Shown: positions 38,594 to 63,349 of the stretch, in pieces
Numbering within the stretch: the first letter of the stretch is position 1
Layout of the letters: every line of letters begins with the position of its first letter
Source of the DNA: a virus
Lineage: Duplodnaviria > Caudoviricetes
Length of the DNA stretch: 64,000 bases
Virus record (IMG/VR): IMGVR_UViG_3300033463_000014
Location: 1 to 64,000 of that record
Strand: one strand, 5' to 3'
Translations under genes and position numbers: made by a program
The notes under the pieces: model-generated
Seen by the model: the letters and a program-made list of their open reading frames with translations, nothing else
What the model was told of the DNA's origin: nothing
Database searches by the model: none

Positions 38594-41335
38594 TCAGTCC
38601 TGCTGGACCGTCTTCTCCTTGAGCTGTAGCGTGAGGTCGCCCAGCGACTTGAACACGTTGCGGAGCCTGTCCTCCATCTGGACGACGTCGTCGCTCCCGT
38701 ACCTCTGGTTGAAGTCCTCGTGCTTCCAGTAGAACAGGAACAGGATGCGTCCGAGCCGGTCGATCGTGTCCATGAACTCAGGGACGTACGAGTCTACGAC
38801 GTTGCCAACGTCGTAGACCTTGACGAGCCCGCCGATGGCGGCCTGGTCGAACACGTGGCGCTGACCGGCGGCCGCCGCATCCGCGGCGAGGGCCTTCGCC
38901 TCCTCGTCAAGCGGGAGGGCGCCCTCGAGCGAGTCCGTGTGCCCGTCGGGGATCTCCTCGCCCCCCATGTTGCGCTCCATCTCTCCGCCGATGTTGATGC
39001 CGCGAGTCATGCCGCCCTCGGGCGGGAGCCCCGGGACGCCGGTGAACTGGCCGTGGACCATCTCGACGTACGGCGACGCGTATACGGGAACTCCGGAGTA
39101 GGGGTCCGTCGCGGGGATCTGGTCCATCGGGGCAGGCATCGCGACGTTCACGAGGCTTCCGACCTGCGCCGACTTCCCAATCCCGGCCTTTCCGGACAGG
39201 GACGGTACCATTACGAGAATCCTTACGCCGTCCGAGGAAGCAGCCGCCTTTGAGAGGTAAGAGAACGCCCGCCTTGGCCTCATACCGAACCTTGTGACGA
39301 GGTCTACGGCCGCCTGCTTGTATCCCATGGGGCCGTGCGGGCGTTTGGCGCCGTCGACGCTGAAGTAGAAGTCGGATCCGTCTGAGGCGATCTTGATCCT
39401 CTCGACTCCCTCGCTCTTCATCTGGTCGAGGATGTCCCCGGGATGTCCGAACGTGTACCTGCTGATCAGGGCCTTCCGTTCCTCGCCGGCCCTGGCAATG
39501 CTCATTTCCCGATCCGCATCGCTCTCGTCCGGATTGTATGCGTGTTCCGGCAGCGTCCTGACCTTTAGCGCCTTCCAGTCTGCAGGGATGATGACTCCGG
39601 ACGATGTCTTCTTCGGCATGCCGCCCTCCGAGCCGACGCTGAGGAAGTCCGAGGACCCGCAGATTTCGCACTCGCAGCAATTGTCTGCGTCGTACCACGT
39701 CTTCCTTCTCCCGTCGAAGTCGTGGTAGCGGTCGGACATATCCCAGTCCATGAAACCGTAATGCGGCTCAAGGGAACCGGACGGCTCTGTCTCGATGACG
39801 CAGTTCCCCCATCCGGTTGAGAACCTAGTGTGGTCCCCGTCCTTGAAGACGTGCTTGATGAAGAACGGACCGGCCGCATTCCCCTTGTCGTCGATGAACA
39901 TGTACGGCGTTCCCCTGTCCCTTCCGTCAGTCCCGACCTCGATTCCGCCGATGTCGGAAGCCTTCCCGTAAAGAGCCTTGAGATCGTCACCCTTGTCATC
40001 CTTCGCGGAATCCTCCTTGAACTCAGTCGTGAGGACTGACATCGGGGATGCCTCCGCGATCACGAACCCGTTGTCCTCGAAGCAGAAAAGCGTGCAGTCC
40101 TTGCCGCAGGTCGGAGAGACGACTGCGTTCAGCATAAAGCCCTCGCGGGTCATACCGTCCCCCATTACGAAATTGTACATCCCGGGACCGTCCGGAGGAT
40201 TGAACCTGCGCTCGAAGCTGACGAGGGCGTCGTCGTCCGTAACCTTGGCCGTCTCCTCGTCAGGGCGGAGATCCTCGATGGTGAAGTCGCGCTCGACGAT
40301 CTGCCTGGCGTTCTCCTCGACCGTGAGAGGGCTATCCTCCTTACCGACGTCGGATGCAGGGGTGTCCTGGGCGGACTTAGACAGGTCACCGATGTCACCG
40401 ACGACCCTTACCTTAGGCGATGAAGCGGCGATCTTGCGCATCCTGTCGACGTGGATGGATGCGTTCGCGAGCCTGTCGGTCCAGAACGCTCCTGCGTCCT
40501 TGTAGAGCGTGAGGGCCGCGTTGGCGAACCCTGCGTCGTGCATTGCCCCGAGGAACATGACCATGCACTCCGGTCCTCCCACCTTCTCCATGAAGGACCG
40601 GATGTATCCGGACTCGGCGCGCTTCTCAACCTTTCCAACCACCGACGACGCGAGGCCTGCCAACATTTCCGCGGTGTCCGGATCGGAGAGGGCTTTCGCG
40701 GTAGCCTCCTTGATGTGTTCCCACGCGTCGGAGAACGTCCACAACTCGTCTTTTTCAGCCGATCCCATCTTCCCGAGCATCACCTGCGGGCGCTGGACAA
40801 ACGTGAGGTCAGGATTCCGCATGGTCTCCCTGACGCGGTCGTCGGCAGCCTCGCCGATGCTGACGGAATGCCGGCTGATGATGAAGTCGATCCATTTCTC
40901 CTCAAGCGGGATGAACTGGTTCGTCTTCTTGTTGAGGATCATGTCGATCCCGCGAACCTGATTGTTCAGGAAGAACGCGGGGACATAGTAGAAGTCGTCG
41001 CCGATCTTGTATCCGAAGATGCCGACGGCCTTCGAGCCGTCCTCGCTCCTGTCGACGACCTCGAACCCGATGAGGTACTTGATGAGGGCCGGCGCCCTGT
41101 CCTGGACGAACTGGAACGCGAGCGACCCGAAATCGTCCTCGTACTGGCGCTGGTTCGCCGACTCCGGGGCCTGCATCTCGTCCGGGTTACCAGTCACGGG
41201 GGACTGTCCCGGGTCTGGCGGGATCCCCTCAGGGCCTCCCGGCGCAGCCATCTGCGCCTCCTTGAAAATGAGCGTTCCCAGCCCGATTTTCGGGCTTATC
41301 CTGAGAGAGTCGAAAGTGGGTCTAGAGCTTGCCAT
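38594..41335 (-). CDS. Large head-module protein (913 aa), putative inner-head/core protein
   Basis: Own promoter and AGGAG RBS; multiple KxA motifs (KEAQ, KRAE, KIAA, KSAQ twice). Confidence 0.6.
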   Translation of the reverse strand: MASSRPTFDSLRISPKIGLGTLIFKEAQMAAPGGPEGIPPDPGQSPVTGNPDEMQAPESANQRQYEDDFGSLAFQFVQDRAPALIKYLIGFEVVDRSEDGSKAVGIFGYKIGDDFYYVPAFFLNNQVRGIDMILNKKTNQFIPLEEKWIDFIISRHSVSIGEAADDRVRETMRNPDLTFVQRPQVMLGKMGSAEKDELWTFSDAWEHIKEATAKALSDPDTAEMLAGLASSVVGKVEKRAESGYIRSFMEKVGGPECMVMFLGAMHDAGFANAALTLYKDAGAFWTDRLANASIHVDRMRKIAASSPKVRVVGDIGDLSKSAQDTPASDVGKEDSPLTVEENARQIVERDFTIEDLRPDEETAKVTDDDALVSFERRFNPPDGPGMYNFVMGDGMTREGFMLNAVVSPTCGKDCTLFCFEDNGFVIAEASPMSVLTTEFKEDSAKDDKGDDLKALYGKASDIGGIEVGTDGRDRGTPYMFIDDKGNAAGPFFIKHVFKDGDHTRFSTGWGNCVIETEPSGSLEPHYGFMDWDMSDRYHDFDGRRKTWYDADNCCECEICGSSDFLSVGSEGGMPKKTSSGVIIPADWKALKVRTLPEHAYNPDESDADREMSIARAGEERKALISRYTFGHPGDILDQMKSEGVERIKIASDGSDFYFSVDGAKRPHGPMGYKQAAVDLVTRFGMRPRRAFSYLSKAAASSDGVRILVMVPSLSGKAGIGKSAQVGSLVNVAMPAPMDQIPATDPYSGVPVYASPYVEMVHGQFTGVPGLPPEGGMTRGINIGGEMERNMGGEEIPDGHTDSLEGALPLDEEAKALAADAAAAGQRHVFDQAAIGGLVKVYDVGNVVDSYVPEFMDTIDRLGRILFLFYWKHEDFNQRYGSDDVVQMEDRLRNVFKSLGDLTLQLKEKTVQQD

Positions 41336-44562: not shown

Positions 44563-46068
44563 TCAGTTCGACTTGCGGCACGCGAGGGCGTACCGGGCGA
44601 GGGCGGCGGGGTCTACACCCATCTCGGCGGCCTTCTTGCAGAACCCCTCGATGTACTTGGCCTCGTCGCCAGTCGGACTGGCGGATGCCGTCTTCTCGCG
44701 GATCTTGGCCTCGATGGCGTCCTTGCGGCGCTGCAGGCATGCGGCGACCTTTCCGAGAAGCCCGCCCTTCGCTGACGCGGCGCTGGCCCTGTTGGCGACG
44801 ACCGCGGAGGCGACCTTGCTGATGGCGTTTTTCCTGATCGCAGCGGCGGCGGTCTTCATGGCCTCCTCGGCGGCGGCGGCACCGGCCGCCTCGTCCTGGG
44901 CGTCCTGGATCGCCTGCGCGGCGTCGGCCTCTCCGGCCGCTGCGGCATCATCGGCGGCGGCGGCTTCAGCGCCGGCCCCGGAACCACCCTCGATCTCGCC
45001 TACGATGGCCTTGGCCTGCTCCGGTGTGATCTCCCCGCTCTCGAGCCCCTGCGCGATGATCTCGGCGGCCTCGTCCTCCGTGATGTCTCCGTTCTCACCG
45101 GCGGCCGGCTCGGATCCTTCGTCCCCGGCGAGCTCATCGACGAGGGCCTTGGCCGTGTCGACGTCGAGCTCTCCTGTGCGGACGAGGTCCACGATCGCGG
45201 CTCCGAGCTCTTCCTCCGTCACGTCCTCGGGGATCTGGACATCCCCAACGCCGGTGGCTGCATCGGCGGCGGCTGCATCGGCGGAACCTGCGTCAGCGGC
45301 GGCCTCGGCGGCCGCGGCGTCCTCGCCGGAGATTCCGGCCATGGCCATGGCGTTGTTCGCGGCTGCCTCGGCGGCGGCGGGATCAAGCCCGTCGGCCTGT
45401 GCGGCCTTCACGCAGGCGGCCTTGATCAGGGAGATGACGGACTCCCTGTCGGAGGCCTTCTTCTCCTGGGCCTTCTGGATAGCGTTCTCGGCGGCCCCGC
45501 GACCGGCCATGAACGCGGCACTCGCGGCGGCGATCTTGGAGATCGTTTCGTCGTCCAGGGCGATAGTCGTCTTGGAGGGGTTCTGAGGCACGTCCGTCTG
45601 GGCCTGCTTCTGGGCGGACGGTGCGGGCTGTGCCTGCTTCTGGGAGGCCTGCTTCTGTGTTTCCTGCTTCTGGGCGGCCTGCTTCTGCCCGCTGTCGATG
45701 TCGGACAAAAGGTCGTTGATGAGGCTGGCCATGCGGTCGGACGCCTCCTTGGCGCTGAGGGCGTCGTCCGTCACGAGGGGCTTCTCGTCCGGGTTCAGAA
45801 GCGGCTGGTCGACCTCAAGCTTGCCCTCGTTGAGAGGCTTTGCGTCGCCACCGTTCACGGCCCCCTCGGAGGATGTCGCTCCGGCGGGTAGGCCCTGCGT
45901 GACCTCCGGATCGGGTTTCTCAGCGTCCTTGGGGACTTTCTCGTCATGCTCGGAACCCGGAAGGGAGTCGACGCCGACAAGAGCCCCCGGTTCTGCAGCG
46001 AGCGTCTCGTTCGCAAGCTTCTCGAGCCTGTTGAACTGTTGGATGAGCTGGTTCAGCGGAAGTGCCAT
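44563..46068 (-). CDS. Scaffolding protein (501 aa)
   Basis: Acidic, Ala-rich low-complexity protein between the protease and MCP genes; more than 10 KxA motifs including QKQA repeats. Confidence 0.7.
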   Translation of the reverse strand: MALPLNQLIQQFNRLEKLANETLAAEPGALVGVDSLPGSEHDEKVPKDAEKPDPEVTQGLPAGATSSEGAVNGGDAKPLNEGKLEVDQPLLNPDEKPLVTDDALSAKEASDRMASLINDLLSDIDSGQKQAAQKQETQKQASQKQAQPAPSAQKQAQTDVPQNPSKTTIALDDETISKIAAASAAFMAGRGAAENAIQKAQEKKASDRESVISLIKAACVKAAQADGLDPAAAEAAANNAMAMAGISGEDAAAAEAAADAGSADAAAADAATGVGDVQIPEDVTEEELGAAIVDLVRTGELDVDTAKALVDELAGDEGSEPAAGENGDITEDEAAEIIAQGLESGEITPEQAKAIVGEIEGGSGAGAEAAAADDAAAAGEADAAQAIQDAQDEAAGAAAAEEAMKTAAAAIRKNAISKVASAVVANRASAASAKGGLLGKVAACLQRRKDAIEAKIREKTASASPTGDEAKYIEGFCKKAAEMGVDPAALARYALACRKSN

Positions 46069-46169: not shown

Positions 46170-46198
46170 ATCATACATAATCCTCTGTGGCGTGTCAA
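46170..46198 (-). promoter_or_regulatory. Sigma70-consensus promoter TTGACA-N17-TATGAT for the scaffold-capsid operon
   Basis: Read directly; lies in the 126-nt intergenic region, with the -35 overlapping the protease stop. Confidence 0.75.
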
Positions 46199-47670
46199 CT
46201 CGCGGACGGCGACACCATGTCCTGCGCCGCTGCGATCGCGATCACGTCGTCCTCACGTATGCCGGCGCATGCCGGCCCTGACAGCGCCGCGGCCAGCGCG
46301 GCCACCTTGTACATCGCGTAGCGCCTGGCCAGCCTGTCCGCGACAGCGGAAACCTCGCCGTCCGCATCCGCGTCCGCGCTTTTCTCCATACGGACGAACT
46401 GCGGGCACTCCCCGGACGCCATGGCAGACAGAATTCCAGTCACGGCGTCCCATGCGGAGAACCCGCCGGCGGACGCGGACTTCGACAGGGCCTCGCGGAT
46501 CGGACCGGGGACCGGACTAGAGAGCGCGAGCGGGCAGGACGGGTCGTAAGACGCGCAGTTGCAGAACCCGGCGCACGACGCCGTCTTGACGGCCTCCGTT
46601 ATGATCCCGGGAACCCTGCGGGCGACATGGCCAGCGTATCGCACGACCTTCCCGTATTCGGGGCCGAACGCGTACTTCAGGAACGATTCGGCGTCGAGGA
46701 TGACGCCGGCGTTCCCGAGCGCGGCGAAGGCGTCGGAAGGGTCAAGGGCCCTGAGCGACGACAGAGTCTCCCCGTCCAGCCTGGCGCCTGCGAGCTTCCT
46801 GAGCTCGAACTCGTATGCCTCCCTAGCCCCCGACGGCTTCGCGCCGCCGAAAATCCACGAGTCCATCCTGGAATAGGCGCCGGCCAGCTTTTTCATGATC
46901 CCGAGCTTCCTGACCGCCAGGTCCGACTCGATGACCAGATCGTCAGGGAGTACGTATCCCTCGATCTCTGCCCGCTTGACGGAACTGCAGATGGGGATGT
47001 CCTCCGGCATGCCAGAAGCGACCTTCAGGCTCCACGCGATGCGGTCCGCTGGCCGGCCGACGAAGGAGATGTCGAACCACGTCGGCTCGTCATTGTAGGT
47101 CCCGATCTGACTGCCGTCCTCCGCGATCTTCCCGAGGCTGTATTTGACGTGGTCGCACTCGTTCTCGTCGCCCGCCTGCTTCCGTATGGCCCCGCAGCAT
47201 GAGCAGCGGTCAAAAGGCACCTTGGCCGCCATGCTGAAGCTGACCTCGCCGGTCTTCTCGAGGCGGTCAAGATGGTCGCGGGCCTTCTCGTTGTCCGCCC
47301 AGATGTACAGCTCGATCCTGTGCATGTCCGGGTTGTATGCCGCGGCCTTGATCTGACCGATTGCCTTTTCGGGGTCCTTGTTCCTGTGGTGCTGGAAGAC
47401 GTGGCCGTACTTCACGAACGTGTCGTGGTACTTGACGCACGCCTCCTTAGGGAACAGATCCCCGTTCCTGTTCATCGGGTACGCCTCTGAGTCCCCGAGG
47501 GCGACCAGGTGGATCCCCGTCATGCCATCCGGAGGCTTGAGCTGGTCGTACCCGCACCTGAAGATCGTGGAGGCCTGCTTTCTCATCTCGGACGCGGACT
47601 TCACGATCTCCCCGCCAACCCCGACGGACTGGCTGATGTCGGAAGAGTATGTGACCTTGATCATCGACAT
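46195..47670 (-). CDS. Prohead maturation protease (HK97/assemblin-like Ser-His protease with a CxxC insert, 491 aa)
   Basis: NRNGDLF, HVFQHH, SFSMAAKVPFDRCSCCG...CDH, FDISFVGRPAD motifs; upstream of the scaffold gene. Confidence 0.75.
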   Translation of the reverse strand: MSMIKVTYSSDISQSVGVGGEIVKSASEMRKQASTIFRCGYDQLKPPDGMTGIHLVALGDSEAYPMNRNGDLFPKEACVKYHDTFVKYGHVFQHHRNKDPEKAIGQIKAAAYNPDMHRIELYIWADNEKARDHLDRLEKTGEVSFSMAAKVPFDRCSCCGAIRKQAGDENECDHVKYSLGKIAEDGSQIGTYNDEPTWFDISFVGRPADRIAWSLKVASGMPEDIPICSSVKRAEIEGYVLPDDLVIESDLAVRKLGIMKKLAGAYSRMDSWIFGGAKPSGAREAYEFELRKLAGARLDGETLSSLRALDPSDAFAALGNAGVILDAESFLKYAFGPEYGKVVRYAGHVARRVPGIITEAVKTASCAGFCNCASYDPSCPLALSSPVPGPIREALSKSASAGGFSAWDAVTGILSAMASGECPQFVRMEKSADADADGEVSAVADRLARRYAMYKVAALAAALSGPACAGIREDDVIAIAAAQDMVSPSAS

Positions 47671-50710: not shown

Positions 50711-50739
50711 ATTATACCGAATAAAACGTGTAGAGTCTA
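50711..50739 (-). promoter_or_regulatory. Sigma70-type promoter TAGACT-N17-TATAAT (CGG before the -10)
   Basis: 29 nt upstream of ATG 50681. Confidence 0.65.
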
Positions 50740-51978
50740 ACCGCCAATCTCGAGCCGGGACAGGTAATCGTCCAGCGCTTTCATTTTCTCTTTTCTTATG
50801 CCATCTGCCTTCGGAAAATCCTTGTGGATTGACTTAACCATCTCAGACGCCATTTCGCGGCTCCACGGCTTTCCAAGGATCTCGTCGTACATCCTGTTCT
50901 TCGCATACGTGTCCCATATCACCTTGTCTTCATCGTTAAGCACGCCTTTCATTCTCTTGAGTAACTCCATACCCTCGTATTCCTTGGGCCTGATTTCCTC
51001 GCCTTCCATTATTTTCCCAAGAACCCTGTCTATCTTGTACCTTAACTCTGCCCTTTTTCTGTCGACCCTGTTTCCCTGAGCCCCGATTTCCGCGGCTGCG
51101 GTCTGGAGAGGGGCAACCATATACAACGGGAACTTAGCCGCTTCGGTCACAGCGGACCGGACACCTTTCCTTATACCATTCTCCAAGCCTTCGGATCTCG
51201 CCGACTTCCCTCCTTCTGACAGTCCAATTCCGGCAACGAAAGCTGGCAACGCGTACTTCCCTCCGAGGAAGAAGCTCGGGAACGCGTATCCGTTAAGAGC
51301 GGATCCCGCTATCTCTCCCGAGTTTCCTCCCTTGAGGTACGTTCCTATACCCTCCTTCGCGCCCATGGAAACGCCTATAGGTGTCTTGAGCTTACTGAGG
51401 GCGCCGAACGCCTTACCAAATCCTGACGCCACAGCGCTGCCTCCGGGAATCTTTGATGCGACACTTCTCATGGCGCCAGACACACCCCTCGCCATGGGAA
51501 CAATGCCGAGCCTTTTGAGGAGGACGGCCGCTGAGTTTGCCCCGACCATACCTGCTGTCGCCTCAGGGAGATAGGATCCGGCCGCCATTACCTTCTCAAG
51601 CGGGGTCCCCTTCTCGAATGCGTATTCCCTTCCAGCATCCAAGGCCGACTGAAGGCTAGGGTTTCCGAGCGCCCCGTACCATCCCCTGTATGCCATGTCA
51701 GGGTTTGCGCCGTTGACAGACCCGGAACCTCCGTTCCATTTGCCCTTTCCGGATGTCATGACGGACTTCTGTTCTCCGCCAGGAGCGACATTTTTCCACG
51801 CCCTTATCTGCGGTACCGGTCTTCCTGAACTATCAAGCATGTGTCCGGAAGGCGATCTCGCGTCCCTGTTGTAGCCATGGTATCCCTCAAGCCACTCCGC
51901 CGGCCTCATCTGCGCTGTCTTCAACATGTCTACCCACGACGTCTTTCCTTCCATCGCCATACTGAACCCTCCTGACAT
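50737..51978 (-). CDS. Hypothetical Gly/Ala-rich protein, putative internal head protein (413 aa)
   Basis: N-terminal MLKTAQ motif; amphipathic/hydrophobic middle region; lower GC. Confidence 0.55.
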   Translation of the reverse strand: MSGGFSMAMEGKTSWVDMLKTAQMRPAEWLEGYHGYNRDARSPSGHMLDSSGRPVPQIRAWKNVAPGGEQKSVMTSGKGKWNGGSGSVNGANPDMAYRGWYGALGNPSLQSALDAGREYAFEKGTPLEKVMAAGSYLPEATAGMVGANSAAVLLKRLGIVPMARGVSGAMRSVASKIPGGSAVASGFGKAFGALSKLKTPIGVSMGAKEGIGTYLKGGNSGEIAGSALNGYAFPSFFLGGKYALPAFVAGIGLSEGGKSARSEGLENGIRKGVRSAVTEAAKFPLYMVAPLQTAAAEIGAQGNRVDRKRAELRYKIDRVLGKIMEGEEIRPKEYEGMELLKRMKGVLNDEDKVIWDTYAKNRMYDEILGKPWSREMASEMVKSIHKDFPKADGIRKEKMKALDDYLSRLEIGG

Positions 51979-54003: not shown

Positions 54004-56106
54004 CTACACCCCCTTTATCTCGACAGGGTCGTTCGGGCCGATCTCGCCGCCCCTGTACGCCCTGATCGCGTCCGCCTTCGTCTCGAACACCCTGACCGGA
54101 CGCTTCGTCCTGCCCCTCGTAAGCGCCCACAGCCCGGATATCTGCTCCTTCTCGGGCTTGTACCTGACGGACTTCATGTCCGTAAGGCTGATGAGGTTCT
54201 CGGACGGGAGCATCTTCTCAAGGGACTGCTTTGCGGCCTTGTCGCTCGCCGGCACGTGGATGTTCACCGTGTTGCTGAGAACGACGCCGTCGTCTGAAAT
54301 GAACGTGTCGGGGCCTGGCACAGTAAGATCATACCCGATTTCCTCCTTGCCCGTCTTCTCGACGGACTTGATCTTGAGCCACGAAACCTTATATGACGCC
54401 GTCTCCGAAAGGGCCTTCATCTCGGCGCAATCCCTGAGTTCGGTGTCCGGGCTTCCGTACAGGGAAAACAGAGCCTTTATGTCCCCCAATTGTGACCATG
54501 TAAGGAATCCCTTCTTCCTCGCGATGTATATGTCGTTAACCGATTTCCTCACATCGGAGGACCATGTCGGAGCGATCCTTGGCTTCGAGGCGTTCCACCC
54601 GTCCGAGAGGGCTTTCAGCTCGTCGCCGCTCACGCTGACCTTCCACGACCTCCTGCTTCCGCCCGCGTCCTTCTCGAGCATCCCGGAGAACCTCGACTCG
54701 ATATCAGCAAGCACGGACAATCCATTATCCCTTGCGATTGTGTTCTTTTCGGCCATCTCGTTCCCAATGGCCTCGATATCGCGGACGGTATTCCTGGTTA
54801 TCGTTCCGATACACGCGCGATTCCTCACGTTCATGGCGACACTATTCACTTTTCTTCTCATCGCCATCTCGTCTTCTCCTGCGGATCCCTCGTCAGAACC
54901 CGAAACCTCGAAAGTCGGTATCAGACGCGATATCTTTTCCGCTATTCCGCGAGGGAACGGGATCACATCGTTCCTGACGTAGGTTGAGCGCGTGTCAACA
55001 TGGGAAGAGACGAAAATGTCCCTCTTTCTCGAATGGCAGCACATCGAGAGGAGATCCACGCGCTTCGCGTCAACTGTGCTTACTGAGCATATCCAAGAGT
55101 CGTTCCCTCCGGACGTGCGCTTGCTGTAGGAAATAGAAGACCCGACCCCGAGGAGCTGGCAGCACCTCCTGAACTCCCTGACGAGACGGATGGATGTGCT
55201 TGAGAACGATATCAGGAGCTGGGGCTTCTCTTTGCTGTGGCTCAGGCATACCGTCCCGTCCGTAGCGATAAGCCCGTTAACGAGACCAAGGATAAACTCC
55301 CTTCCAGCGAACTGGAACCAGACCGGAAGCCTCTTATTGGCTGACCCGGACGTTTTCTCGTCCCCATGCCCGTCGATGAGCTCCTTGATCCGTCCTCCGA
55401 GAATACTTCGTCTACCGGAGTTCAGCCTGTAAGCGGTCGTGTCCCCGTACCTACCGGACTCATCGCAGAACCTGTGCTCGATCTTCGATATCGTGAAGTC
55501 CGGGAAAACGGTCTTCAGGAAGTCTGATACGAAGGCGATGTTATATCCATCGTTGTCCGAGAGATATGGGTTTAGGCACCTGTCCGCCCATCCGTCTCCA
55601 GCCATGATTCCGACGAACTGTCCGAAACCGAACCCGATTTCAGTACACAGCCCTGACTTTTCCAGCTTGATCATCCCATCCTGAAAATCAAACGACAGGC
55701 CATCAACAGAGGAGGCTAGAGGACAGTCCGATACGGGGACGAGAACATTCTTGTCCATCGCATCGGACGGCGTGAACCTCCCCGGAGTCATTGAGTCTCC
55801 GTTGGCCGCGATGCCGTAGACTGCCCTCGGGTCGTTGTCCGTGATGATCTGCCTTCCGTCCTCAAGGTTTACGATCTCAACCTTCTTCCCCCGATGCACG
55901 GACCAGAATTTGACATCCCTGAACTCGGGGAGACCGGTCTTCTCGTTGTATGAGGAAACCCTCACGCCTTCCGGGACATCGTAGAACTCAATGTCGTATC
56001 CGGAATCCTTCCTCACTGACGAGAGCCCGCCATGGGGGAAGTCCTCGAGATCAACGACAACCGGGACACCTTCCATCTCAGCCACCACGCTCTTTTTGAT
56101 CTGCAT
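54004..56106 (-). CDS. C-terminal split-intein-like part with LAGLIDADG endonuclease, fused to the last 88 aa of the beta'-like RNAP segment (700 aa)
   Basis: FVGIMAGDG and LVNGLIATDG motifs; GYDLTVPG..F...GVVLSN followed by TVNIHVP, which continues NADFDGD. Confidence 0.8.
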   Translation of the reverse strand: MQIKKSVVAEMEGVPVVVDLEDFPHGGLSSVRKDSGYDIEFYDVPEGVRVSSYNEKTGLPEFRDVKFWSVHRGKKVEIVNLEDGRQIITDNDPRAVYGIAANGDSMTPGRFTPSDAMDKNVLVPVSDCPLASSVDGLSFDFQDGMIKLEKSGLCTEIGFGFGQFVGIMAGDGWADRCLNPYLSDNDGYNIAFVSDFLKTVFPDFTISKIEHRFCDESGRYGDTTAYRLNSGRRSILGGRIKELIDGHGDEKTSGSANKRLPVWFQFAGREFILGLVNGLIATDGTVCLSHSKEKPQLLISFSSTSIRLVREFRRCCQLLGVGSSISYSKRTSGGNDSWICSVSTVDAKRVDLLSMCCHSRKRDIFVSSHVDTRSTYVRNDVIPFPRGIAEKISRLIPTFEVSGSDEGSAGEDEMAMRRKVNSVAMNVRNRACIGTITRNTVRDIEAIGNEMAEKNTIARDNGLSVLADIESRFSGMLEKDAGGSRRSWKVSVSGDELKALSDGWNASKPRIAPTWSSDVRKSVNDIYIARKKGFLTWSQLGDIKALFSLYGSPDTELRDCAEMKALSETASYKVSWLKIKSVEKTGKEEIGYDLTVPGPDTFISDDGVVLSNTVNIHVPASDKAAKQSLEKMLPSENLISLTDMKSVRYKPEKEQISGLWALTRGRTKRPVRVFETKADAIRAYRGGEIGPNDPVEIKGV

Positions 56107-56242
56107 CTCCTAAACTCCTTTTCTGATTGGATGCGTGATAATTTATCAAAAACTTAAGATTGATGCAACCAATATCTTTGCTACTCAAAAAGTCGTCAAG
56201 AGCCTTGCCAGTAAGGCTGACGCGAACGCTTCCAATCTGCTG
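54271..56242 (-). mobile_element. Atypical split intein/homing-endonuclease element at the RNAP catalytic motif (IntN 56242-56081, IntC 56106-54271)
   Basis: Removing it restores NADFDGD-TVNIHVP, equivalent to NADFDGD-QMAVHVP of bacterial beta'. Confidence 0.75.
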
Positions 56243-59200
56243 GTCGCCGTCGAAGTCGGCGTTGAACGCGCCACAGACTAGAGGGCAGACGTTGATTGAG
56301 CGCCCTTTCACGATGTGAGGCTTGAAGGCCATGATGTTGAACTTGTGCCACGTCGGGGCCCTGTCCATGAGAACGGGCCGCTCCTCCATGACGTCGTCCA
56401 GTATGTGCCTCGCAGTGGCGTTTCTCTCGTCGATCATCTCCTTTGAGGCGACCGGGGAATAGCCGCGCTGGACGAGCTTGCGCTCTACGAAGGGTCTGAA
56501 TATTGTCCAGGCCATGTCCTCAGGGATCCCGATCTGGTCCATGCTGAGGTTGCCGTTCGGGGTGATGACGGAGCGTCCGACGAGGTCCTGGGTCTTCGAG
56601 ACGGTCTTTGCCTGGAACATCCCCATCTTCGGGACTGTCCCTATCACCTGCCTGACGGCGCCCTTGAGGTTCTTCGCGCGGCCCTCCTGCGTTACGGGGT
56701 CACCGAGCCCGTAGGCGGCCTTCACGGCCCCGTAGACGGCAAGGCGCTCGTCCGCGAGGGCGGAGGCGGGGAGCTCCCTGGAGAGGTCCTCGTAGTTGCG
56801 CTTCATCTCGATGAGCTCCTTGTAGAGCTCGTTCATGTCGGGCACGAGGGCTACGTCGCCCATCTTGGAGACCGGGCGGAACATGGGCGGGAGAACGGGA
56901 ACCCGCGAGATCATCCAGTCTGACGGAGAGATGCCCATCTTATTGGCGGACTTCAGGTATCCGAGGACCTTAACGGCGTTGTCCCGCTGCGCCCCGCGCC
57001 TGGTTAGAACCTCCGAGCGGGCCTTCTCGATGGCGCCGTCCACGTCGACCTTCGACAGGGCTTCCCTGAGGGCTTCCCCGCCCGTCTTGCCGTTCAGCTC
57101 CTCGCGTCCGGAGAGGACGGCCTCCATTTTCTTCGCCGTCAGTCCGAGGACGCGGCGTACGGGCTCCTCCATCATCGGGTTTGGGACGGGATCCGGGAGC
57201 GTGATCATGCTCCAGCGGTTTCCGCCCATCCCGCCCGTCTTTCCGAGGTCGAAGAGTCCTCCCCTTACGGGGTTCATGTCGGGGTCGACCATCTGCGAGG
57301 AGTCGATCACTCGGCCCTGGGCGAGCTCGTCGATGTCCTTGTCGGTCTGCGGCATGATGGATGTGACGTCTCCCTTCTCCACGACGTTCACGCCGCCGGC
57401 GCGGAGTGTGTTCAGGAACTTCTGGTAGATGAACGGCACTCCGGGCTCCTCGACGGGGAGCCCGAGGCGGTAGCGGCGCCAGTACTCGTCGTTGCGCGAG
57501 CCGCGCAGGGTTATGGAGTCCTTCAGGACGTCGGTCGCGCCGTGAGAGAGCAGGGCCGTCGCGTCAAAACCAGAATTTGAAACCAGGCAGTCAGAAGCAC
57601 AGTATTTGTGCGATTTCGCAACTGTAATGTCATACAGGCATATTTCGTCGTCTGGACCATGCTTGCCATCGCTGTACGGCCTCACAGATGTGACAAGCGC
57701 CGGGACGCTTCCAAGTGCGTAAGCAGTGTCTACACCTACGTACGTTTCATACAGCCTTGAAACTTCATTTATCAGCCACTTCTTAGAGGCTGGTATGTCT
57801 TCAGGCCTGATGTATTTGGCTACAATACGAGCCATACTGCGGCAGGCATCAGCAGACAACCCCAAGTAATAATACTCTTTTTTTACACCTTTGTAGGTTT
57901 TATGCGTCGTCCTGACAGTCACGCCAGCGCCAAGCCTCCCGCAAAGCCATTCGGCAAGCCTACAGTTCTCTTCATACGTAAAGTTCAATGTTGATATTGC
58001 CCCAAATGGGCTACCGGTCGGCACTCCATTCTTCGTGTGCTCAGATGCGCAGCCATCGTCAAGGAACCATGCGGCTATGCCGACATCATTTATGTTAGAC
58101 AGGTCGACGTTGACAAGGCTCTTACGACCGAGAGACCCGTCTGGCTGTCTATAGAACATGTTCTTGAGCCGTTCTGCTATGTCATGGCGGTGAATCTGAA
58201 AATACACAATATGCGAGTCGTCTCCATCAGCACGCCTAAATCCAGTCTTGCTCTTCCTCTGGGTGTTCTTTCTGCTTGACACCAGCGCTCCTAGGCAGTG
58301 TATCTTCCAGTTGACGTAGGCGTACTGATGGTGGCTGTGCTGCTCTTGGTAGAACGGTATACATCCGACGTCTAAGCTATTCGTCCTGTCAGACTTGCAT
58401 AGATTGTCGTTTATATTGCATATGCATCCATCGCCAAGCATAGAACCCATTAGAATGGACATCTGGTCCTCTGTAGGCACATACCCGTATGTCGTCAGCC
58501 AGTCACCAGGCCTTAAATCACCAGCAAGAACTTCACCTTTGTTGAAGGAGTACATGTGATGCTGACGTGTGACATGCATCGTCTTGCCTGTGTATACTAC
58601 TCGCTTACGGCTACAATTATCTGACCCTGGCAGATAGTTAATTGATATGGACAGAACCTCTGACATCTTCCCCTTGCGGCAGAACCAGTTCGTTATGAGA
58701 GAATAACCCCATGACCCGTTGTCGAAGCGGGTCCACACGTATTCGGGAATTTTCTTGTCTACGATATGACCTATGGATTCCTCTCCATGCAATACCCTGA
58801 TCGGCTGATCTGCGGTGAAACACATACGCTTAGCACCGTCATCGCCCCCCTTGGCCGGCTGCTCGTCCATCGTGTAGGCGCTGTCCACGCCGCGTGCCGA
58901 GAACTTCTTTTCGGCCAGGTGGTGGAACGCCTTGACGTACGCGTACCCGTCTCCGACGTTCTTGATGATCCTTCCCGTCTGCGGGTCGAACACGTCTGAC
59001 GACTCCTTGACGCCGTTCTCGTCCATCTGCCGTTTGACCCATGCGGTCCACCCCTCTTGCGGCGGCAGCTGAGGGATGCGGATCTGCTTCCCTGTCTTCT
59101 TGGCCACCTTGGCGAGGTTCATCAGGGCTATCTGGCCCGGGGCGACGCGGGAGAGGAAACCCATGGGGTTCATCAGCATGTCGTACGGCTCGTTCGTGGC

Positions 59201-62200
59201 CGCGTCGCGCGGCATCTTATCGTCCGGGATGACGTCCGAGACGACCCCCTTTAGAGAGAAATCGGGGCACAGCTTGTCGCCGGGCTTCACAGGAGGGTCG
59301 CTGTTGACGATCACCTTCGCGCCGTGCGGTCCCGACACGATGTCCGTGACGACTCCAGGCCAGTCGTGCTCCCACTTCTGTGATCTGTCCGTGATGGCGT
59401 TCCTCAGGACGCCGGAGAGCTTTCCGAGCTGTGCGTTCTCCGGTGACAGCATCTTGGGCCCGATGGCGAGGATCATGGGGTCGTCCCTGTGGAGCACGGT
59501 ACCGACCTTTACGACGCCGTCGTCCCCGATCGTGTCGGCCTGCGCCTTCGTGTAGGCCGACGGGAACGCCGCGAGGAACTTCGACCTGGCGATCTGCACG
59601 CCGTTCTTAGTGTCCTGCTCGAAGTTGTACGTGCGCGACGTGGCGAGCTTCTTCGCCGCGGATTCCGAGATCACGATGGCGTCCTCGAACGACGACGTGC
59701 CCTGCGGGGCGGGAAGCACGGCGACCTTCAGGTTCCGTCCCATGGTGACCGTTCCGGTCTTCGGGTCGGTGAAGTTGGAGTTGGCGAGGATTCCGCCCTC
59801 CTCCACCTCGTCTCCCTTTTTCACCTGGGCGGTGAACGAGAGGGAGGACAGGCGGTTGAACGGGAGGCCCTTGACGAGCGACGCGGTGTGCTCGCGGCCG
59901 TCCTTCCCGCGGAGGACGATCTCATTGTCGCTCACCTTCACTACGGTACCGGCGAACGGGGCCGTCAGGCATCCGACCCTCCGCCCGTAGTACTCGCCGT
60001 ACGTCGTTTTCCCGTCGTCGGTCAGGCTCTCGACAAGAGGAACCTCTCCCTCTTTCTGGGGGAGGAACTGCTCCCAGAACTTCGACATGTAGAACTGGCG
60101 GGCGCCCATGACGGCCGTTGGCATCGGGTTCATGTTGATGCCGGCAGACACGGTGTTGCCGAACCCAGGCACCATGAAGTCCACCTCGTCCCTGGGGACC
60201 ATCGTAGGCACGCCCTTGCGCATGACGTAGAGGTTGGGTGACTTCGGGTCCTGGCCCGGGAAGGCCACGGTGTGGGACGACGCGTCGTTCAGGGAGACGT
60301 AGCGGGTTTTACCGGTCCGCATGTCGATCATCTTGTTGTAGATCCGGTTGTCGCTCCCCTTCATCGTCCCGAGCGCCGCCCTGACGTCGATCCCGATGCC
60401 GAACGACTCAGGACCGCTGATGAAGTCCACGTAGCCCAGGTAGTCACCCTGGACGTTGCGGGCCTCGTTGGTCACGAGGTCGGGCGAGGAGATGCCGCCC
60501 TCCCCAAGGCGGGTGATGCGGGACTGCTGGGTGAGGAGCGACATCGGGTTCGCCTCCTCTCCTGGCATCGCGAGTCCGGACCCCGAGAGAAAGGTGTCGA
60601 GATAGGGCCCGAGCGCGTTCCTGGCTATGCGGGCCAGCGAGCGGTCCCGCTTCGCCCTGAACAGGAGGGACTTCGTGAGGCGTCCAGAGTCGCGGTCGAT
60701 GCGCTCGCGCATCATGTCCTCCACCCCGTAGAACCGGCTGAAGCGGGGGTTGTCGCGCTCGTCCGGCTCCTCAGCGCCCCTGTTGATGTTCAGGAGCTTC
60801 TGCGCGGCCCTGAGCATGACCTTCCCGGTCACTCCAGAGGCGTTCTCAAGCCCGAGCGTCCGGACGACGACGTCTGGGTCGAGCCCGCTGGAGGCAAGCG
60901 ACTCGGAGATGAACGAGGCCTTCTCGGACGGGGTCAGGCTCATGTCGGCCCGGCGGCCGGCGTAGCGCGCGTAGACCTTGTCGACGGCCCTAGGGTCGAA
61001 CTTGGCGATGTTCACGTTCGCAACGGCGTCTCCCCAGGACTTCCGCATGTCGTCATCCGACACGCCGAGGGCGCTCAAAATGGGGTAAAGGGGGACATGG
61101 CCCTGTCCGACGCTCATGTTCAGTGCGCCGGTCGACCTGTCCAGTCCGATCCGGAAGCCGAGCCCGTTCGCCACGTTGAACTGGGACTCGAGCTCGCCGT
61201 TCTGCTTGCGGCGCACGTAGACCCCGGGGGACAGGCGGGCCTGAGAGATGACGGTGTACTCGCTCCCGTTATTGATGATCGTTCCCCTGTCGGTGTAGTA
61301 AGGTACCCTGATGACGCCGTCCCTTCGCTCGTCCAGGACTTTCCCGGTGCGCTTGTCCGTCAGGCGCCACGTCCCGGCGACAGAGCATCCGAGGCGCCTG
61401 TTGTTCAGGATGGCCCTCTTCTGCTGCTCAAGCGTGTAGGAGGTAGGACCCTCGTATTTAACGTCCAGAAGCTCGAGGCGCACGTCGTCGTTCTCGATCG
61501 GGAAGCGGTTCTTGACGGCTTCAAGGACGTTGTCCATGATGGCCTGCCGAGTGGCCGGCGCGTCCGTGAACCCGCGTAGCCTCACGCCCGGAGGCACGCC
61601 CTCCATGGGATCGTCGGCGTCGTCCGCCTGGGAAGTCTTGACTATGCTCTTCTCTTTCTTATATCCGGAAGCAGTCTCCTCGTCGTCAAGATTCTTCTGA
61701 GCCTCTTCCCGAGTGTTGAACACCTTCCCGGGATGGTCTCCGAACCCGCCGTACATGGCGAGTCCGGTGGTCTTAAACCTTCCCCCTTCTTCGATGTCTG
61801 GGGAATCTAGCCAGCAGCAGTAGTAATCCTTTCCGTTGGACCGCTTCCCGCCGTAATAGTATCCTACGATCTTACGTACCTTTCCACTCATCCTCGCGTG
61901 AGGGAAGGTTACCCATTTCCCGATAGGAAATTTTTCCTTCATTTCCGCGGGGATATCATCCTCCTCATGACGATCTTGCGATGTCTTGACGATGCTCTTT
62001 TTTTCGGCTGGATCTGATTTGGCGGCAGGGGCCTTGTCCGCGGGAGCCTGTTTTTCGGTCTTGGCTGGATTCGAGGCCTCCTGGTTCAGGACCCAGACGT
62101 CACCGTTCCTCCTGAGCCTCTTCATGAAGTCGCTGTGGAGCTTCGCCGACTTCGCGACGGCCGCCTCGCTGTAGCTCCTGTTCCCGGGTATCGTGTGGGC

Positions 62201-63349
62201 AGGAGTAAACACCTTTCTCAGAAGCCAGTCGGCGTACTTGTCAGCGGTGAACTCCGCCCCGGCGGCCATGTGGGCCTTGTAACCGGACCTGGACGGCATG
62301 TAGACCTTCGTGAAATAGTCGATCTGGCTGTCGGACGAGTCTTGAAGCCCGTTCTTCGCGAGCCACGCCTTATAAGCATCAAGAGAGGGGCCCGTGTACT
62401 GGAAGAGCCCGCGTCCACCTCCCCCTCCCATCTGCTTAGTGGCGTAGTCGAATCTACCTCCTGTCTCCCTGTCTATGTTCGCCAGCACAGCGGCCTCTAG
62501 AATCGGGTTGTTCAGATTCTCGTGGAGCCTCTTTGCAACGTTATTGAACCTTTCGTAGACATCCACCGGACCGGCGGCTTGCTTTGGCGGGGGGATAACA
62601 ATTTTCTGCCCGATAGAGAGAACGTTCGGGTTCTTGAGGCTGTTCGCGGCGATCAGCTCTTTCAAAGGAACCTTTAGCTTTTGGGCGATACCGTAAAGCG
62701 AGTCGCCCTTCTGGACGACGTATTCGGACGGGCGATTGACAGGATTGACCTGGGCCGCCTTCTCGTTGACCTTTATCGGATCGACGATCGGAGCGACGGA
62801 CCTGTACTCGTGGAACGGCTTGGTCTTGCGGTCAGACGAGTCGATCCACTTCCTGAACTCGGCCTTGGAGACAGGCGTGATCCATCCTAGGCCATTCCAC
62901 CCCTTCTGGTAGCAGGCTAGGTAGGTCTTCTTGGCGTCCTCGACGCTGTCGAAACCGTACATGACCTTGTGCTCGTCGAACTTTCCGGTCTTGGGGTCCA
63001 CCTGGTCGATGACGAAGACGCACCCCTTCTCCGGATGGTCGGACAGGTAGATGTCCACCGGGTCGCCGTCCGTGTCTGTCGTGCCCCTGATGTCTCCGTA
63101 GTCGCATGCGAGAGCATTGCTCCACCTCGTCCCGTCCGGAGAGACCCCGGATCGGATTGACCCCTTCGGGTTCTCTATGGACACGCGGAACCCGTCGATG
63201 GACAGGTGGACCTTTCTGTAGTTCCCCGCCCTTCTCTGCCCTTCTGTGGGGTTCTCGGCTGCGTCAGGGGCTCCTGCGTTCACGGCGCGCTGCGCCGGCG
63301 AGGAGGCCTTTTTCGAGAAGATCGAGTCGATGGTTTCAAGTAGCGTCAT
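56078..63349 (-). CDS. Polyprotein (2423 aa): PPase-like + LysM + phage-tail-lysozyme-like + small insert + fused beta/beta' multisubunit-type RNA polymerase, with a cis intein and a terminal IntN
   Basis: ENPKGS..DYG..DGDPVD..DEHK; YVVQKGDSLYGIA..NPNVLSIGQKIVIP; ANIDRETGG..GLFQYT; beta motifs GRNL..FEDAIVISE, GDKL..KGVV, NPMGFLSR, HHLAEKKFSAR; beta' motifs VPVLPPMFRP, GRSVITP, RAPTWH, NADFDGD. Confidence 0.9.
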   Translation of the reverse strand: MTLLETIDSIFSKKASSPAQRAVNAGAPDAAENPTEGQRRAGNYRKVHLSIDGFRVSIENPKGSIRSGVSPDGTRWSNALACDYGDIRGTTDTDGDPVDIYLSDHPEKGCVFVIDQVDPKTGKFDEHKVMYGFDSVEDAKKTYLACYQKGWNGLGWITPVSKAEFRKWIDSSDRKTKPFHEYRSVAPIVDPIKVNEKAAQVNPVNRPSEYVVQKGDSLYGIAQKLKVPLKELIAANSLKNPNVLSIGQKIVIPPPKQAAGPVDVYERFNNVAKRLHENLNNPILEAAVLANIDRETGGRFDYATKQMGGGGGRGLFQYTGPSLDAYKAWLAKNGLQDSSDSQIDYFTKVYMPSRSGYKAHMAAGAEFTADKYADWLLRKVFTPAHTIPGNRSYSEAAVAKSAKLHSDFMKRLRRNGDVWVLNQEASNPAKTEKQAPADKAPAAKSDPAEKKSIVKTSQDRHEEDDIPAEMKEKFPIGKWVTFPHARMSGKVRKIVGYYYGGKRSNGKDYYCCWLDSPDIEEGGRFKTTGLAMYGGFGDHPGKVFNTREEAQKNLDDEETASGYKKEKSIVKTSQADDADDPMEGVPPGVRLRGFTDAPATRQAIMDNVLEAVKNRFPIENDDVRLELLDVKYEGPTSYTLEQQKRAILNNRRLGCSVAGTWRLTDKRTGKVLDERRDGVIRVPYYTDRGTIINNGSEYTVISQARLSPGVYVRRKQNGELESQFNVANGLGFRIGLDRSTGALNMSVGQGHVPLYPILSALGVSDDDMRKSWGDAVANVNIAKFDPRAVDKVYARYAGRRADMSLTPSEKASFISESLASSGLDPDVVVRTLGLENASGVTGKVMLRAAQKLLNINRGAEEPDERDNPRFSRFYGVEDMMRERIDRDSGRLTKSLLFRAKRDRSLARIARNALGPYLDTFLSGSGLAMPGEEANPMSLLTQQSRITRLGEGGISSPDLVTNEARNVQGDYLGYVDFISGPESFGIGIDVRAALGTMKGSDNRIYNKMIDMRTGKTRYVSLNDASSHTVAFPGQDPKSPNLYVMRKGVPTMVPRDEVDFMVPGFGNTVSAGINMNPMPTAVMGARQFYMSKFWEQFLPQKEGEVPLVESLTDDGKTTYGEYYGRRVGCLTAPFAGTVVKVSDNEIVLRGKDGREHTASLVKGLPFNRLSSLSFTAQVKKGDEVEEGGILANSNFTDPKTGTVTMGRNLKVAVLPAPQGTSSFEDAIVISESAAKKLATSRTYNFEQDTKNGVQIARSKFLAAFPSAYTKAQADTIGDDGVVKVGTVLHRDDPMILAIGPKMLSPENAQLGKLSGVLRNAITDRSQKWEHDWPGVVTDIVSGPHGAKVIVNSDPPVKPGDKLCPDFSLKGVVSDVIPDDKMPRDAATNEPYDMLMNPMGFLSRVAPGQIALMNLAKVAKKTGKQIRIPQLPPQEGWTAWVKRQMDENGVKESSDVFDPQTGRIIKNVGDGYAYVKAFHHLAEKKFSARGVDSAYTMDEQPAKGGDDGAKRMCFTADQPIRVLHGEESIGHIVDKKIPEYVWTRFDNGSWGYSLITNWFCRKGKMSEVLSISINYLPGSDNCSRKRVVYTGKTMHVTRQHHMYSFNKGEVLAGDLRPGDWLTTYGYVPTEDQMSILMGSMLGDGCICNINDNLCKSDRTNSLDVGCIPFYQEQHSHHQYAYVNWKIHCLGALVSSRKNTQRKSKTGFRRADGDDSHIVYFQIHRHDIAERLKNMFYRQPDGSLGRKSLVNVDLSNINDVGIAAWFLDDGCASEHTKNGVPTGSPFGAISTLNFTYEENCRLAEWLCGRLGAGVTVRTTHKTYKGVKKEYYYLGLSADACRSMARIVAKYIRPEDIPASKKWLINEVSRLYETYVGVDTAYALGSVPALVTSVRPYSDGKHGPDDEICLYDITVAKSHKYCASDCLVSNSGFDATALLSHGATDVLKDSITLRGSRNDEYWRRYRLGLPVEEPGVPFIYQKFLNTLRAGGVNVVEKGDVTSIMPQTDKDIDELAQGRVIDSSQMVDPDMNPVRGGLFDLGKTGGMGGNRWSMITLPDPVPNPMMEEPVRRVLGLTAKKMEAVLSGREELNGKTGGEALREALSKVDVDGAIEKARSEVLTRRGAQRDNAVKVLGYLKSANKMGISPSDWMISRVPVLPPMFRPVSKMGDVALVPDMNELYKELIEMKRNYEDLSRELPASALADERLAVYGAVKAAYGLGDPVTQEGRAKNLKGAVRQVIGTVPKMGMFQAKTVSKTQDLVGRSVITPNGNLSMDQIGIPEDMAWTIFRPFVERKLVQRGYSPVASKEMIDERNATARHILDDVMEERPVLMDRAPTWHKFNIMAFKPHIVKGRSINVCPLVCGAFNADFDGDQQIGSVRVSLTGKALDDFLSSKDIGCINLKFLINYHASNQKRSLGDADQKERGG
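56140..56168 (-). promoter_or_regulatory. Internal promoter TTGCAT-N17-TAAATT with downstream AGGAG RBS for the IntC ORF
   Basis: AT-rich island inside the IntN coding sequence; AAAAGGAG 8 nt before ATG 56106. Confidence 0.55.
57575..58822 (-). mobile_element. Canonical class-1 intein (416 aa) with LAGLIDADG homing endonuclease in the beta C-terminal region
   Basis: GAKRM/CFTAD start; block B VTRQH; GSMLGDG and AWFLDDG; YDITVAKSHKY..LVSN/SGFD end; lower GC than the flanks. Confidence 0.9.
61626..62005. repeat. Imperfect direct repeat (KSIVKTSQ, gtcttgac.atgctctt) flanking a ~105-aa insert in the RNAP polyprotein
   Basis: EKKSIVKTSQD at about 61975-62005 and KEKSIVKTSQAD at about 61626-61658. 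Confidence 0.75.

Follow-up and report, generated by a model that had tools for sequence, protein, structure and literature searches.

The RNA polymerases of phiKZ/AR9-type phages are two-barrel enzymes in which β′ is cut after the catalytic barrel and alpha and omega are lacking; their β is divided into two or three proteins unfused to β′, sigma is absent, and two paralogous sets exist, of which the virion form is packaged and the other is non-virion (PMC7598289; PMC7824862). The mReC phages, uncultured tailed phages with bacterial-like β and β′, have in their listed members separate β (920–1563 aa) and β′ (907–1052 aa), often encoded by adjacent genes, and the paper on them is silent on fusions, inteins and any role in the virion (Weinheimer and Aylward 2020, PMC7481178). 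In purified virions of Salmonella phage Arash, mass spectrometry assigned more spectra to gp206 than to any other protein and also detected gp216 and a sigma factor; gp206 and gp216 were annotated simply as β and β′, and a fusion was not described (PMC10585845). Here, a 64,000-nucleotide stretch (the window) was analyzed; it opens a virus record that is complete at 181,382 bp and has terminal repeats (IMG/VR IMGVR_UViG_3300033463_000014, Caudoviricetes). The window carries a long open reading frame (ORF), ORF1, in which a whole β is fused to the N-terminal part of β′, and the remaining β′ is encoded by a separate gene of the same genome.

In the cellular rpoBC fusions of Helicobacter and Wolbachia, β is joined head-to-tail with a full-length β′, the Zn-ribbon is kept, and alpha and omega are used. 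The fusion in ORF1, by contrast, stops at about E. coli β′ 550. The cyanobacterial and plastid enzymes resemble this locus in having β′ in two genes, RpoC1 (gamma) and RpoC2, divided between the catalytic barrel and the bridge helix; however, the cut described here lies ~50–60 residues earlier in the alignment (B. subtilis ~542–557 versus ~604), and gamma is not fused to β. Compared with the phiKZ/AR9 type, β is whole and fused, one set is encoded instead of two, and a sigma-70 protein is present. The original prediction, made from the DNA letters of the window, that the subunit partition differs from both bacterial RpoB/RpoC and the phiKZ-type enzymes was therefore borne out. We assign a probability of roughly 0.75 to the reading that this is a bacterial-type (two-barrel, sigma-dependent) phage RNA polymerase with an unusual gene partition, of which the packaging, cleavage and splicing are the parts that we infer. 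The arrangement is new among phage multisubunit RNA polymerases. Neither the partition nor the N-terminal fusion nor the inteins were found described in the literature on mReC, a jumbo-phage comparison, reviews and targeted searches. The partition differs from that of the listed mReC members, and the IMG sample numbers of two relatives (L011 and L012) are absent from the supplement of the mReC paper.

ORF1 and the following ORF2 are organized as below (window coordinates).

56078..63349, minus strand: ORF1, 2423 aa, consisting of a polyvalent N-terminus, β, intein-1, the β′ N-terminal part to NADFDGD and an intein-like tail.
58823..61615, minus strand: β main part, aa 579–1509, up to the GG..GAKRM site (Pfam Rpb2_6 and phmmer).
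57575..58822, minus strand: intein-1, 416 aa, aa 1510–1925, with Cys1, a TRQH block B and a LAGLIDADG endonuclease.
57371..57574, minus strand: β C-terminal segment, aa 1926–1993, ending GVNVVEKGD (direct reading, and alignment with the intein-free relative P0028 and Arash gp206).
56243..57370, minus strand: β′ N-terminal part, aa 1994–2369, comprising a Zn-ribbon-less N-terminus, the clamp helices and the catalytic barrel to NADFDGD.
56081..56242, minus strand: ORF1 tail, 54 aa past NADFDGD, predicted N-terminal fragment of intein-2 (QQIGSVRVSL...CINLK...).
54004..56106, minus strand: ORF2, 700 aa.
54271..56106, minus strand: intein-2 body, ORF2 aa 1–612, with the rest of the Hint fold and LAGLIDADG (Pfam LAGLIDADG_3 and Intein_splicing).
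54007..54270, minus strand: 88-aa β′ continuation (TVNIHVP...KGV), the C-terminus of ORF2, to about E. coli β′ 550.

As aligned, the β part is colinear with nearly the whole of a small bacterial β and, apart from the intein, forms one stretch. The phmmer comparison with bacterial β chains gave E values down to 2e-41 and colinear matches from residues 32–47 to ~980, in which query residues 33–836 aligned with 47–892 of the 1119 residues of Thermus aquaticus β, and 32–923 with 32–980 of the 1104 residues of a cyanobacterial β. Rpb2_6 (PF00562) matched aa 1183–1501 (E 3e-30). No stop separates the end of β (...GVNVVEKGD) from the start of β′ (VTSIMPQ...), and the Rpb2_6 match is followed by Rpb1_2 within the single ORF, in agreement with the original prediction of β motifs running directly into β′ motifs in one chain. 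The interval that it had given, 56243–61600, was right at its upper limit, since β homology starts at window 61615, but it includes the 416 aa of intein-1 within β, and ORF1 has another 578 aa, with the InPase, LysM and lysozyme domains, upstream of it. The β barrel of ORF1 is the sole one in the genome, and the β′ barrel is likewise single.

The β′ N-terminal part aligned with B. subtilis β′ 145–453, clamp helices included (phmmer, E 2.7e-44), and the Pfam Rpb1_2 (PF00623) match in ORF1 ends at NADFDGD (aa 2363–2369, window 56263–56243). The absence of the Zn-ribbon cysteines, claimed earlier, was confirmed: GGLFDLGKTGGMGGNRW (aa 2030) stands in place of the four-cysteine β′ Zn-ribbon, and the first ~80 residues of the β′ part, which stand for E. 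coli β′ 1–165, read GGLFDLGKTGGMGGNRWSMITLPDPVPNP instead. Alignment to bacterial β′ starts only at E. coli ~166 or B. subtilis 145, which is residue ~76–86 of the β′ part; therefore, ~85 N-terminal residues of bacterial β′ have no counterpart. The β′ Zn-ribbon is absent from Arash too. At the Mg-binding loop, NMDHDGD replaces the near-universal NADFDGD in many close relatives (e.g. P0028, P0006, P0072 and P0024), and NADFDGD is kept here.

After NADFDGD, ORF1 continues (QQIGSVRVSLTGKALDDFL...ERGG, a tail that begins QQIGSVRV) and then reaches a stop. In the intein-free relatives P0028 and P0006, DHDGD-TVNIHVP is read through and the chain stops exactly 88 aa after DGD; P0028 residues 1402–1772 align with E. 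coli β′ 165–540. The proposed chain end 88 aa after NADFDGD thus holds for intein-free relatives such as P0028 and for the predicted spliced form, but not for the literal ORF1, which ends 54 aa after the motif.

The β′ C-terminal fragment, proposed to lie elsewhere in the genome, was found by a PF04998 search of the whole genome in a 1019-aa ORF at 172,628–175,687 (minus strand, outside the window), ~60 kb from the fused gene on the circular map. This β′C starts with MITTVGQVLVNEALP, equivalent to B. subtilis β′ 558–576, was aligned from 558 to about 1093, and carries the F-loop (SKARGNKVQLASF), the bridge helix (EGLSPAEYWAGSFGARAGVISTKSATAKGG), the second Zn-site cysteines, the trigger loop and the C-terminal domain. 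A third, canonical intein interrupts its trigger loop (aa 331–719, NFKH/CLSEGT...IVSN/SGKK, slashes marking junctions). The fused chain ends at ~B. subtilis β′ 542 and β′C begins at 558, ~15 residues later; therefore, essentially no β′ sequence is lost. Of the two possibilities raised originally for the bridge helix and trigger loop, that they are encoded elsewhere held and that they are replaced did not. The ORFs downstream of the fused gene (44.5–54.1 kb) had no polymerase matches in Pfam or PHROGs. A subtilase (Peptidase_S8, E 5e-34) and a BspA-type leucine-rich-repeat protein adjoin the β′C gene (genome 176527–177432 and 177803–179443, outside the window).

At genome 152,375–154,237 (outside the window) lies the gene for a 620-aa sigma-70 protein that has regions 2, 3 and 4; the ~370-aa N-terminal extension of this protein, ahead of those regions, had no Pfam match. 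In the complete phage genome, the alpha and omega families PF01000, PF01193 and PF01192 matched nothing, and the controls all matched.

The β-part search returned more than 570 proteins, and 120 of the 120 listed have both barrels in one chain, most of them with InPase. A HMMER full-library search with the β′ N-terminal part yielded 1336 representatives at E ≤ 1e-30; among the best 148, β lies upstream in the same chain in 135, ~75 end 85–103 aa after DGD uninserted, and ~50 have an insert at DGD. The β′ C-half was absent from ~340 fetched proteins except P0196, a separate β′ protein of 1213 aa with an intein and no β domain. Judged from these protein searches, the division into a β–β′N chain and a β′C chain is common to hundreds of proteins of metagenomic phages and characterizes a large phage clade as a whole.

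The closest GenBank phage relatives (~30% identity) are Arash and the Vibrio phages D69, D148 and D181. Arash gp206 (1525 aa) aligned end-to-end with P0028 over 1513 columns at 31% identity and has the same stop (~88 aa after DGD), and Arash gp216 (606 aa) aligned with the β′ C-half from residue 2. Arash therefore shares the partition and its end points and also encodes sigma factors; it differs by the lack of inteins and of an N-terminus with InPase, LysM or lysozyme, and its two genes are 4.8 kb apart versus ~60 kb here.

The N-terminal region of ORF1 carries the following features.

62843..63241, minus strand: InPase domain, aa 37–169 (Pfam PF18823, E 2e-50).
62591..62722, minus strand: LysM domain, aa 210–253 (Pfam PF01476, E 3.5e-15).
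62294..62494, minus strand: phage tail lysozyme-like domain, aa 286–352 matched (Pfam PF18013, E 1.3e-7).
61628..61975, minus strand: 116-aa cassette between two KSIVKTSQ motifs, aa 459–574.

Among PHROGs, the InPase domain hits families annotated as structural virion proteins or minor head proteins, and the second KSIVKTSQ motif ends 5 aa upstream of the start of β homology. The module between InPase and β is swapped among relatives, with LysM and lysozyme here, HExxH inserts in some (P0009 and P0032) and a short cassette in most; the HExxH inserts were not labeled metallopeptidases, as they matched no Pfam family. In polyvalent proteins, InPase occurs in packaged ones, and the only polymerase reported is of the single-subunit N4/T7 type (Iyer et al. 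2017, PMC5512222). Like those proteins, ORF1 is a giant phage protein that combines entry or counter-defence domains (InPase, lysozyme) with a polymerase that would act on arrival; unlike them, its polymerase is a multisubunit two-barrel module for which a second gene product is needed. InPase (hairpin-less), LysM, lysozyme and polymerase are all found in one polypeptide, in a packaging-gene context.

The minus strand holds nearly all long ORFs of the window, and virion genes surround the polymerase locus.

Genome 70,022–71,770: large terminase (phrog_675, E 1e-60).
Window 46,195–47,670: protease-like ORF (weak match).
Window 33,529–35,754: tail-sheath-like ORF.

The fused gene thus lies between the large terminase (70.0–71.8 kb) on one side and the protease-like and sheath genes on the other. 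The terminase family PF03237, a marker of the mReC lineage, had no match in this genome. Both its N-terminal domains and its place among virion genes suggest that the polymerase is packaged and injected. It is unlikely, although it deserves some weight, that the enzyme instead stays unpackaged and is produced in the infected cell to transcribe middle and late genes, its N-terminal domains serving another purpose: the single polymerase set must also serve late transcription, but the Arash virion proteomics and the place of the gene in the morphogenesis block argue otherwise, and virion proteins that are ejected typically carry lysozyme, LysM and InPase domains.

Across the predicted proteome, nine K[TSA][AS]Q motifs were counted, of which eight fall in ORFs at 38.5–65.3 kb (38594–41335, 44563–46068, 50737–51978, 56078–63349 and 63465–65291) and the ninth in the terminase. 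Three sites lie at domain borders of ORF1 (aa 200, 458 and 574, the last one 5 residues before β), and the motif is a candidate for a prohead-protease cleavage site. Cleavage at the last site and splicing would give a subunit of ~1467 aa, a predicted size close to that of Arash gp206.

The three inteins interrupt conserved sites of the polymerase, namely β GGxxxGxM, β′ NADFDGD/T and the trigger loop. Intein-1 starts at GAKRM/CFTAD and ends at CLVSN/SGFD, with a LAGLIDADG_2 match at aa 1631–1818 (E 1.4e-15, Pfam), and intein-free relatives read GAKRVSGFD uninterrupted at this site. Some relatives have a further intein in β at the GDKL site (P0085: VGDKL/C...WCGN/SPENG). Intein content varies widely among near-identical polymerases, with protein lengths of 1625–2663 aa.

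Intein-2 is divided between the two ORFs. ORF2 lies in another frame with a 29-nt overlap with ORF1 (56078–56106), has its own ATG with an AAGGAG ribosome site upstream, and reads ...GVVLSN/TVNIHVP at its junction. Stand-alone ORF2 homologues of ~700 aa form at least 60 protein clusters (full-length match, 37–67% identity), at least 30 fused chains end 35–54 aa after DGD with conserved tails (xQIGxVxIxL...C-I-N-x-K-T-L), and in the distant relative L014 the two ORFs are 57 nt apart with AAGGAG and ATG in the spacer. These three observations together indicate that the split is real and maintained. A related-loci search with ORF2 returned only two loci, both intein-free. An intron between ORF1 and ORF2 was also considered and rejected, as nothing but a microRNA, a chance match, came out of an Rfam scan of 52–64 kb run with permissive settings.

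A programmed +1 ribosomal frameshift in the overlap (CAA AAA GAG) could instead produce a contiguous intein, for which the overlapping frames, the A5G run (CAAAAAG) in the overlap and the existence of contiguous homologues could be cited. We consider it improbable because ORF2 has its own ribosome site and start codon, the L014 ORFs do not overlap and are separated by a spacer with a ribosome site, and in distant homologues the Met start is conserved whereas the A-run is not. The CAAAAAG run was judged incidental, as distant relatives have neither the overlap nor the run. Even less probable is a broken gene, in which the stop and frame change after NADFDGD would reflect recent disruption or an assembly error and the polymerase would be defective. 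Contiguous versions of intein-2 do exist (P0085, P0009 and P0171), and canonical catalytic residues are missing here; against this stand at least 60 protein clusters, with identities as low as 37%, in which the split is identical, Met begins the protein at the matching point and the alignment covers the full length, the conserved ORF1 tails in at least 30 representatives, the ribosome site before ORF2 both here and in L014, and the fact that a defective chain would hold the only β barrel of a complete genome.

Compared with canonical class 1 inteins, intein-2 has the Hint fold, the C-terminal Asn and a +1 Ser/Thr/Cys, and lacks both Cys/Ser at position 1 and the block-B His. At position 1, this phage has Q and its relatives have Q, K, L, M, E, D or Y, with Cys found once; block B is TDNDP (TDxDP in relatives) instead of TxxH, and block F has D instead of His. 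The Ser-Asn/Thr of the C-terminal junction is invariant in 47 sequences. Inteins without an N-terminal nucleophile are known to splice through direct attack by the +1 residue. By analogy, direct attack by the +1 Thr is a possible route for intein-2.

An AlphaFold model of the contiguous P0171 (mean predicted local distance difference test score, pLDDT, 76) placed a strand and two helices right after DGD, followed by a 30-residue low-confidence linker at the point where this phage has its split. Solved intein-endonucleases aligned from their own residue 1 at model position ~290 to the end at 953 (Z 18–23), DGD ending at 291, and bacterial β′ aligned on both sides of the insert. Because the model matches solved inteins from residue 1 directly after DGD, the ORF1 tail is, as modeled, the N-terminal piece of intein-2.

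Without inteins, β would measure ~999 aa and β′ ~464 + 630 = 1094 aa, just ~10% short of the smallest enzymes of bacteria. The description of the enzyme as "minimised" is therefore not supported, and neither is that of a "missing" β′ C-terminal half, because β′C is encoded in the same genome and the sizes are near bacterial: the enzyme is re-partitioned, not minimal. A self-sufficient single-chain polymerase with a dispensable or replaced bridge helix and trigger loop is scarcely credible, for although neither element is in the fused chain itself and single-chain two-barrel phage polymerases exist (YonO and crAss gp66, cited in PMC7481178), the same genome encodes a colinear β′C that contains the F-loop, bridge helix and trigger loop, starts ~15 residues after the fused-chain end, and has an orthologue co-packaged with the fused chain in Arash.

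How a re-partitioned polymerase of this kind might be assembled can be proposed as follows. The two canonical inteins would splice out after translation, and the ORF1 tail and ORF2 would reassemble the Hint fold and trans-splice, restoring DGD-TVNIHVP. The prohead protease would cut at K-[TSA]-[AS]-Q and free the ~1467-aa β–β′N from the N-terminal domains. β–β′N would then pair with the ~630-aa β′C and sigma, be packaged in the head and enter the cell with the DNA. There, LysM and lysozyme may act on peptidoglycan and InPase may remove pyrophosphate, and the covalent β–β′ link would replace the alpha-dimer assembly platform. The proposal in its full form, namely an injected polyprotein that a large and mostly uncultured phage clade would deliver into the host with a sigma-dependent bacterial-type polymerase as cargo, a β–β′ link in place of the alpha platform, and a catalytic loop completed only when a nucleophile-less split intein joins two gene products, is advanced tentatively and with more doubt than confidence.

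Several points weigh against the main reading of this locus. Splicing of intein-2 by the standard route is excluded, as judged from its residues, because it has neither Cys/Ser at position 1 nor the two conserved histidines, and trans-splicing is a hypothesis; if intein-2 stayed unspliced, the catalytic barrel would be discontinuous beside the Mg-binding loop. The packaging is argued by analogy from Arash, at 31% identity and from a protein without the N-terminal domains. The K[TSA][AS]Q motif was defined after looking at the sequence, and host alpha could be recruited. Synteny of a portal gene with the polymerase is not claimed, as the 608-aa ORF upstream (63465–65291) could not be confirmed as a portal: it had no PHROG or Pfam match, and its BLAST comparison with the Arash portal gave E 0.06.

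Phage multisubunit polymerases inform how the cellular enzyme was assembled from parts, and this clade adds a third natural partition, in which a whole β is fused to the β′ barrel and the remaining β′ is separate. Besides being common in metagenomes, the clade includes cultured phages (Arash and the Vibrio phages D69, D148 and D181); therefore, it can be tested whether a covalent β–β′ link makes alpha dispensable, whether the phage sigma is carried in the virion, and whether a split non-canonical intein beside the Mg site can be tolerated, or even exploited, by a polymerase. The polyvalent-protein idea would extend from N4-type to two-barrel polymerases. If joining by the split intein is true, the polymerase would be active only once a step of assembly or splicing has taken place.

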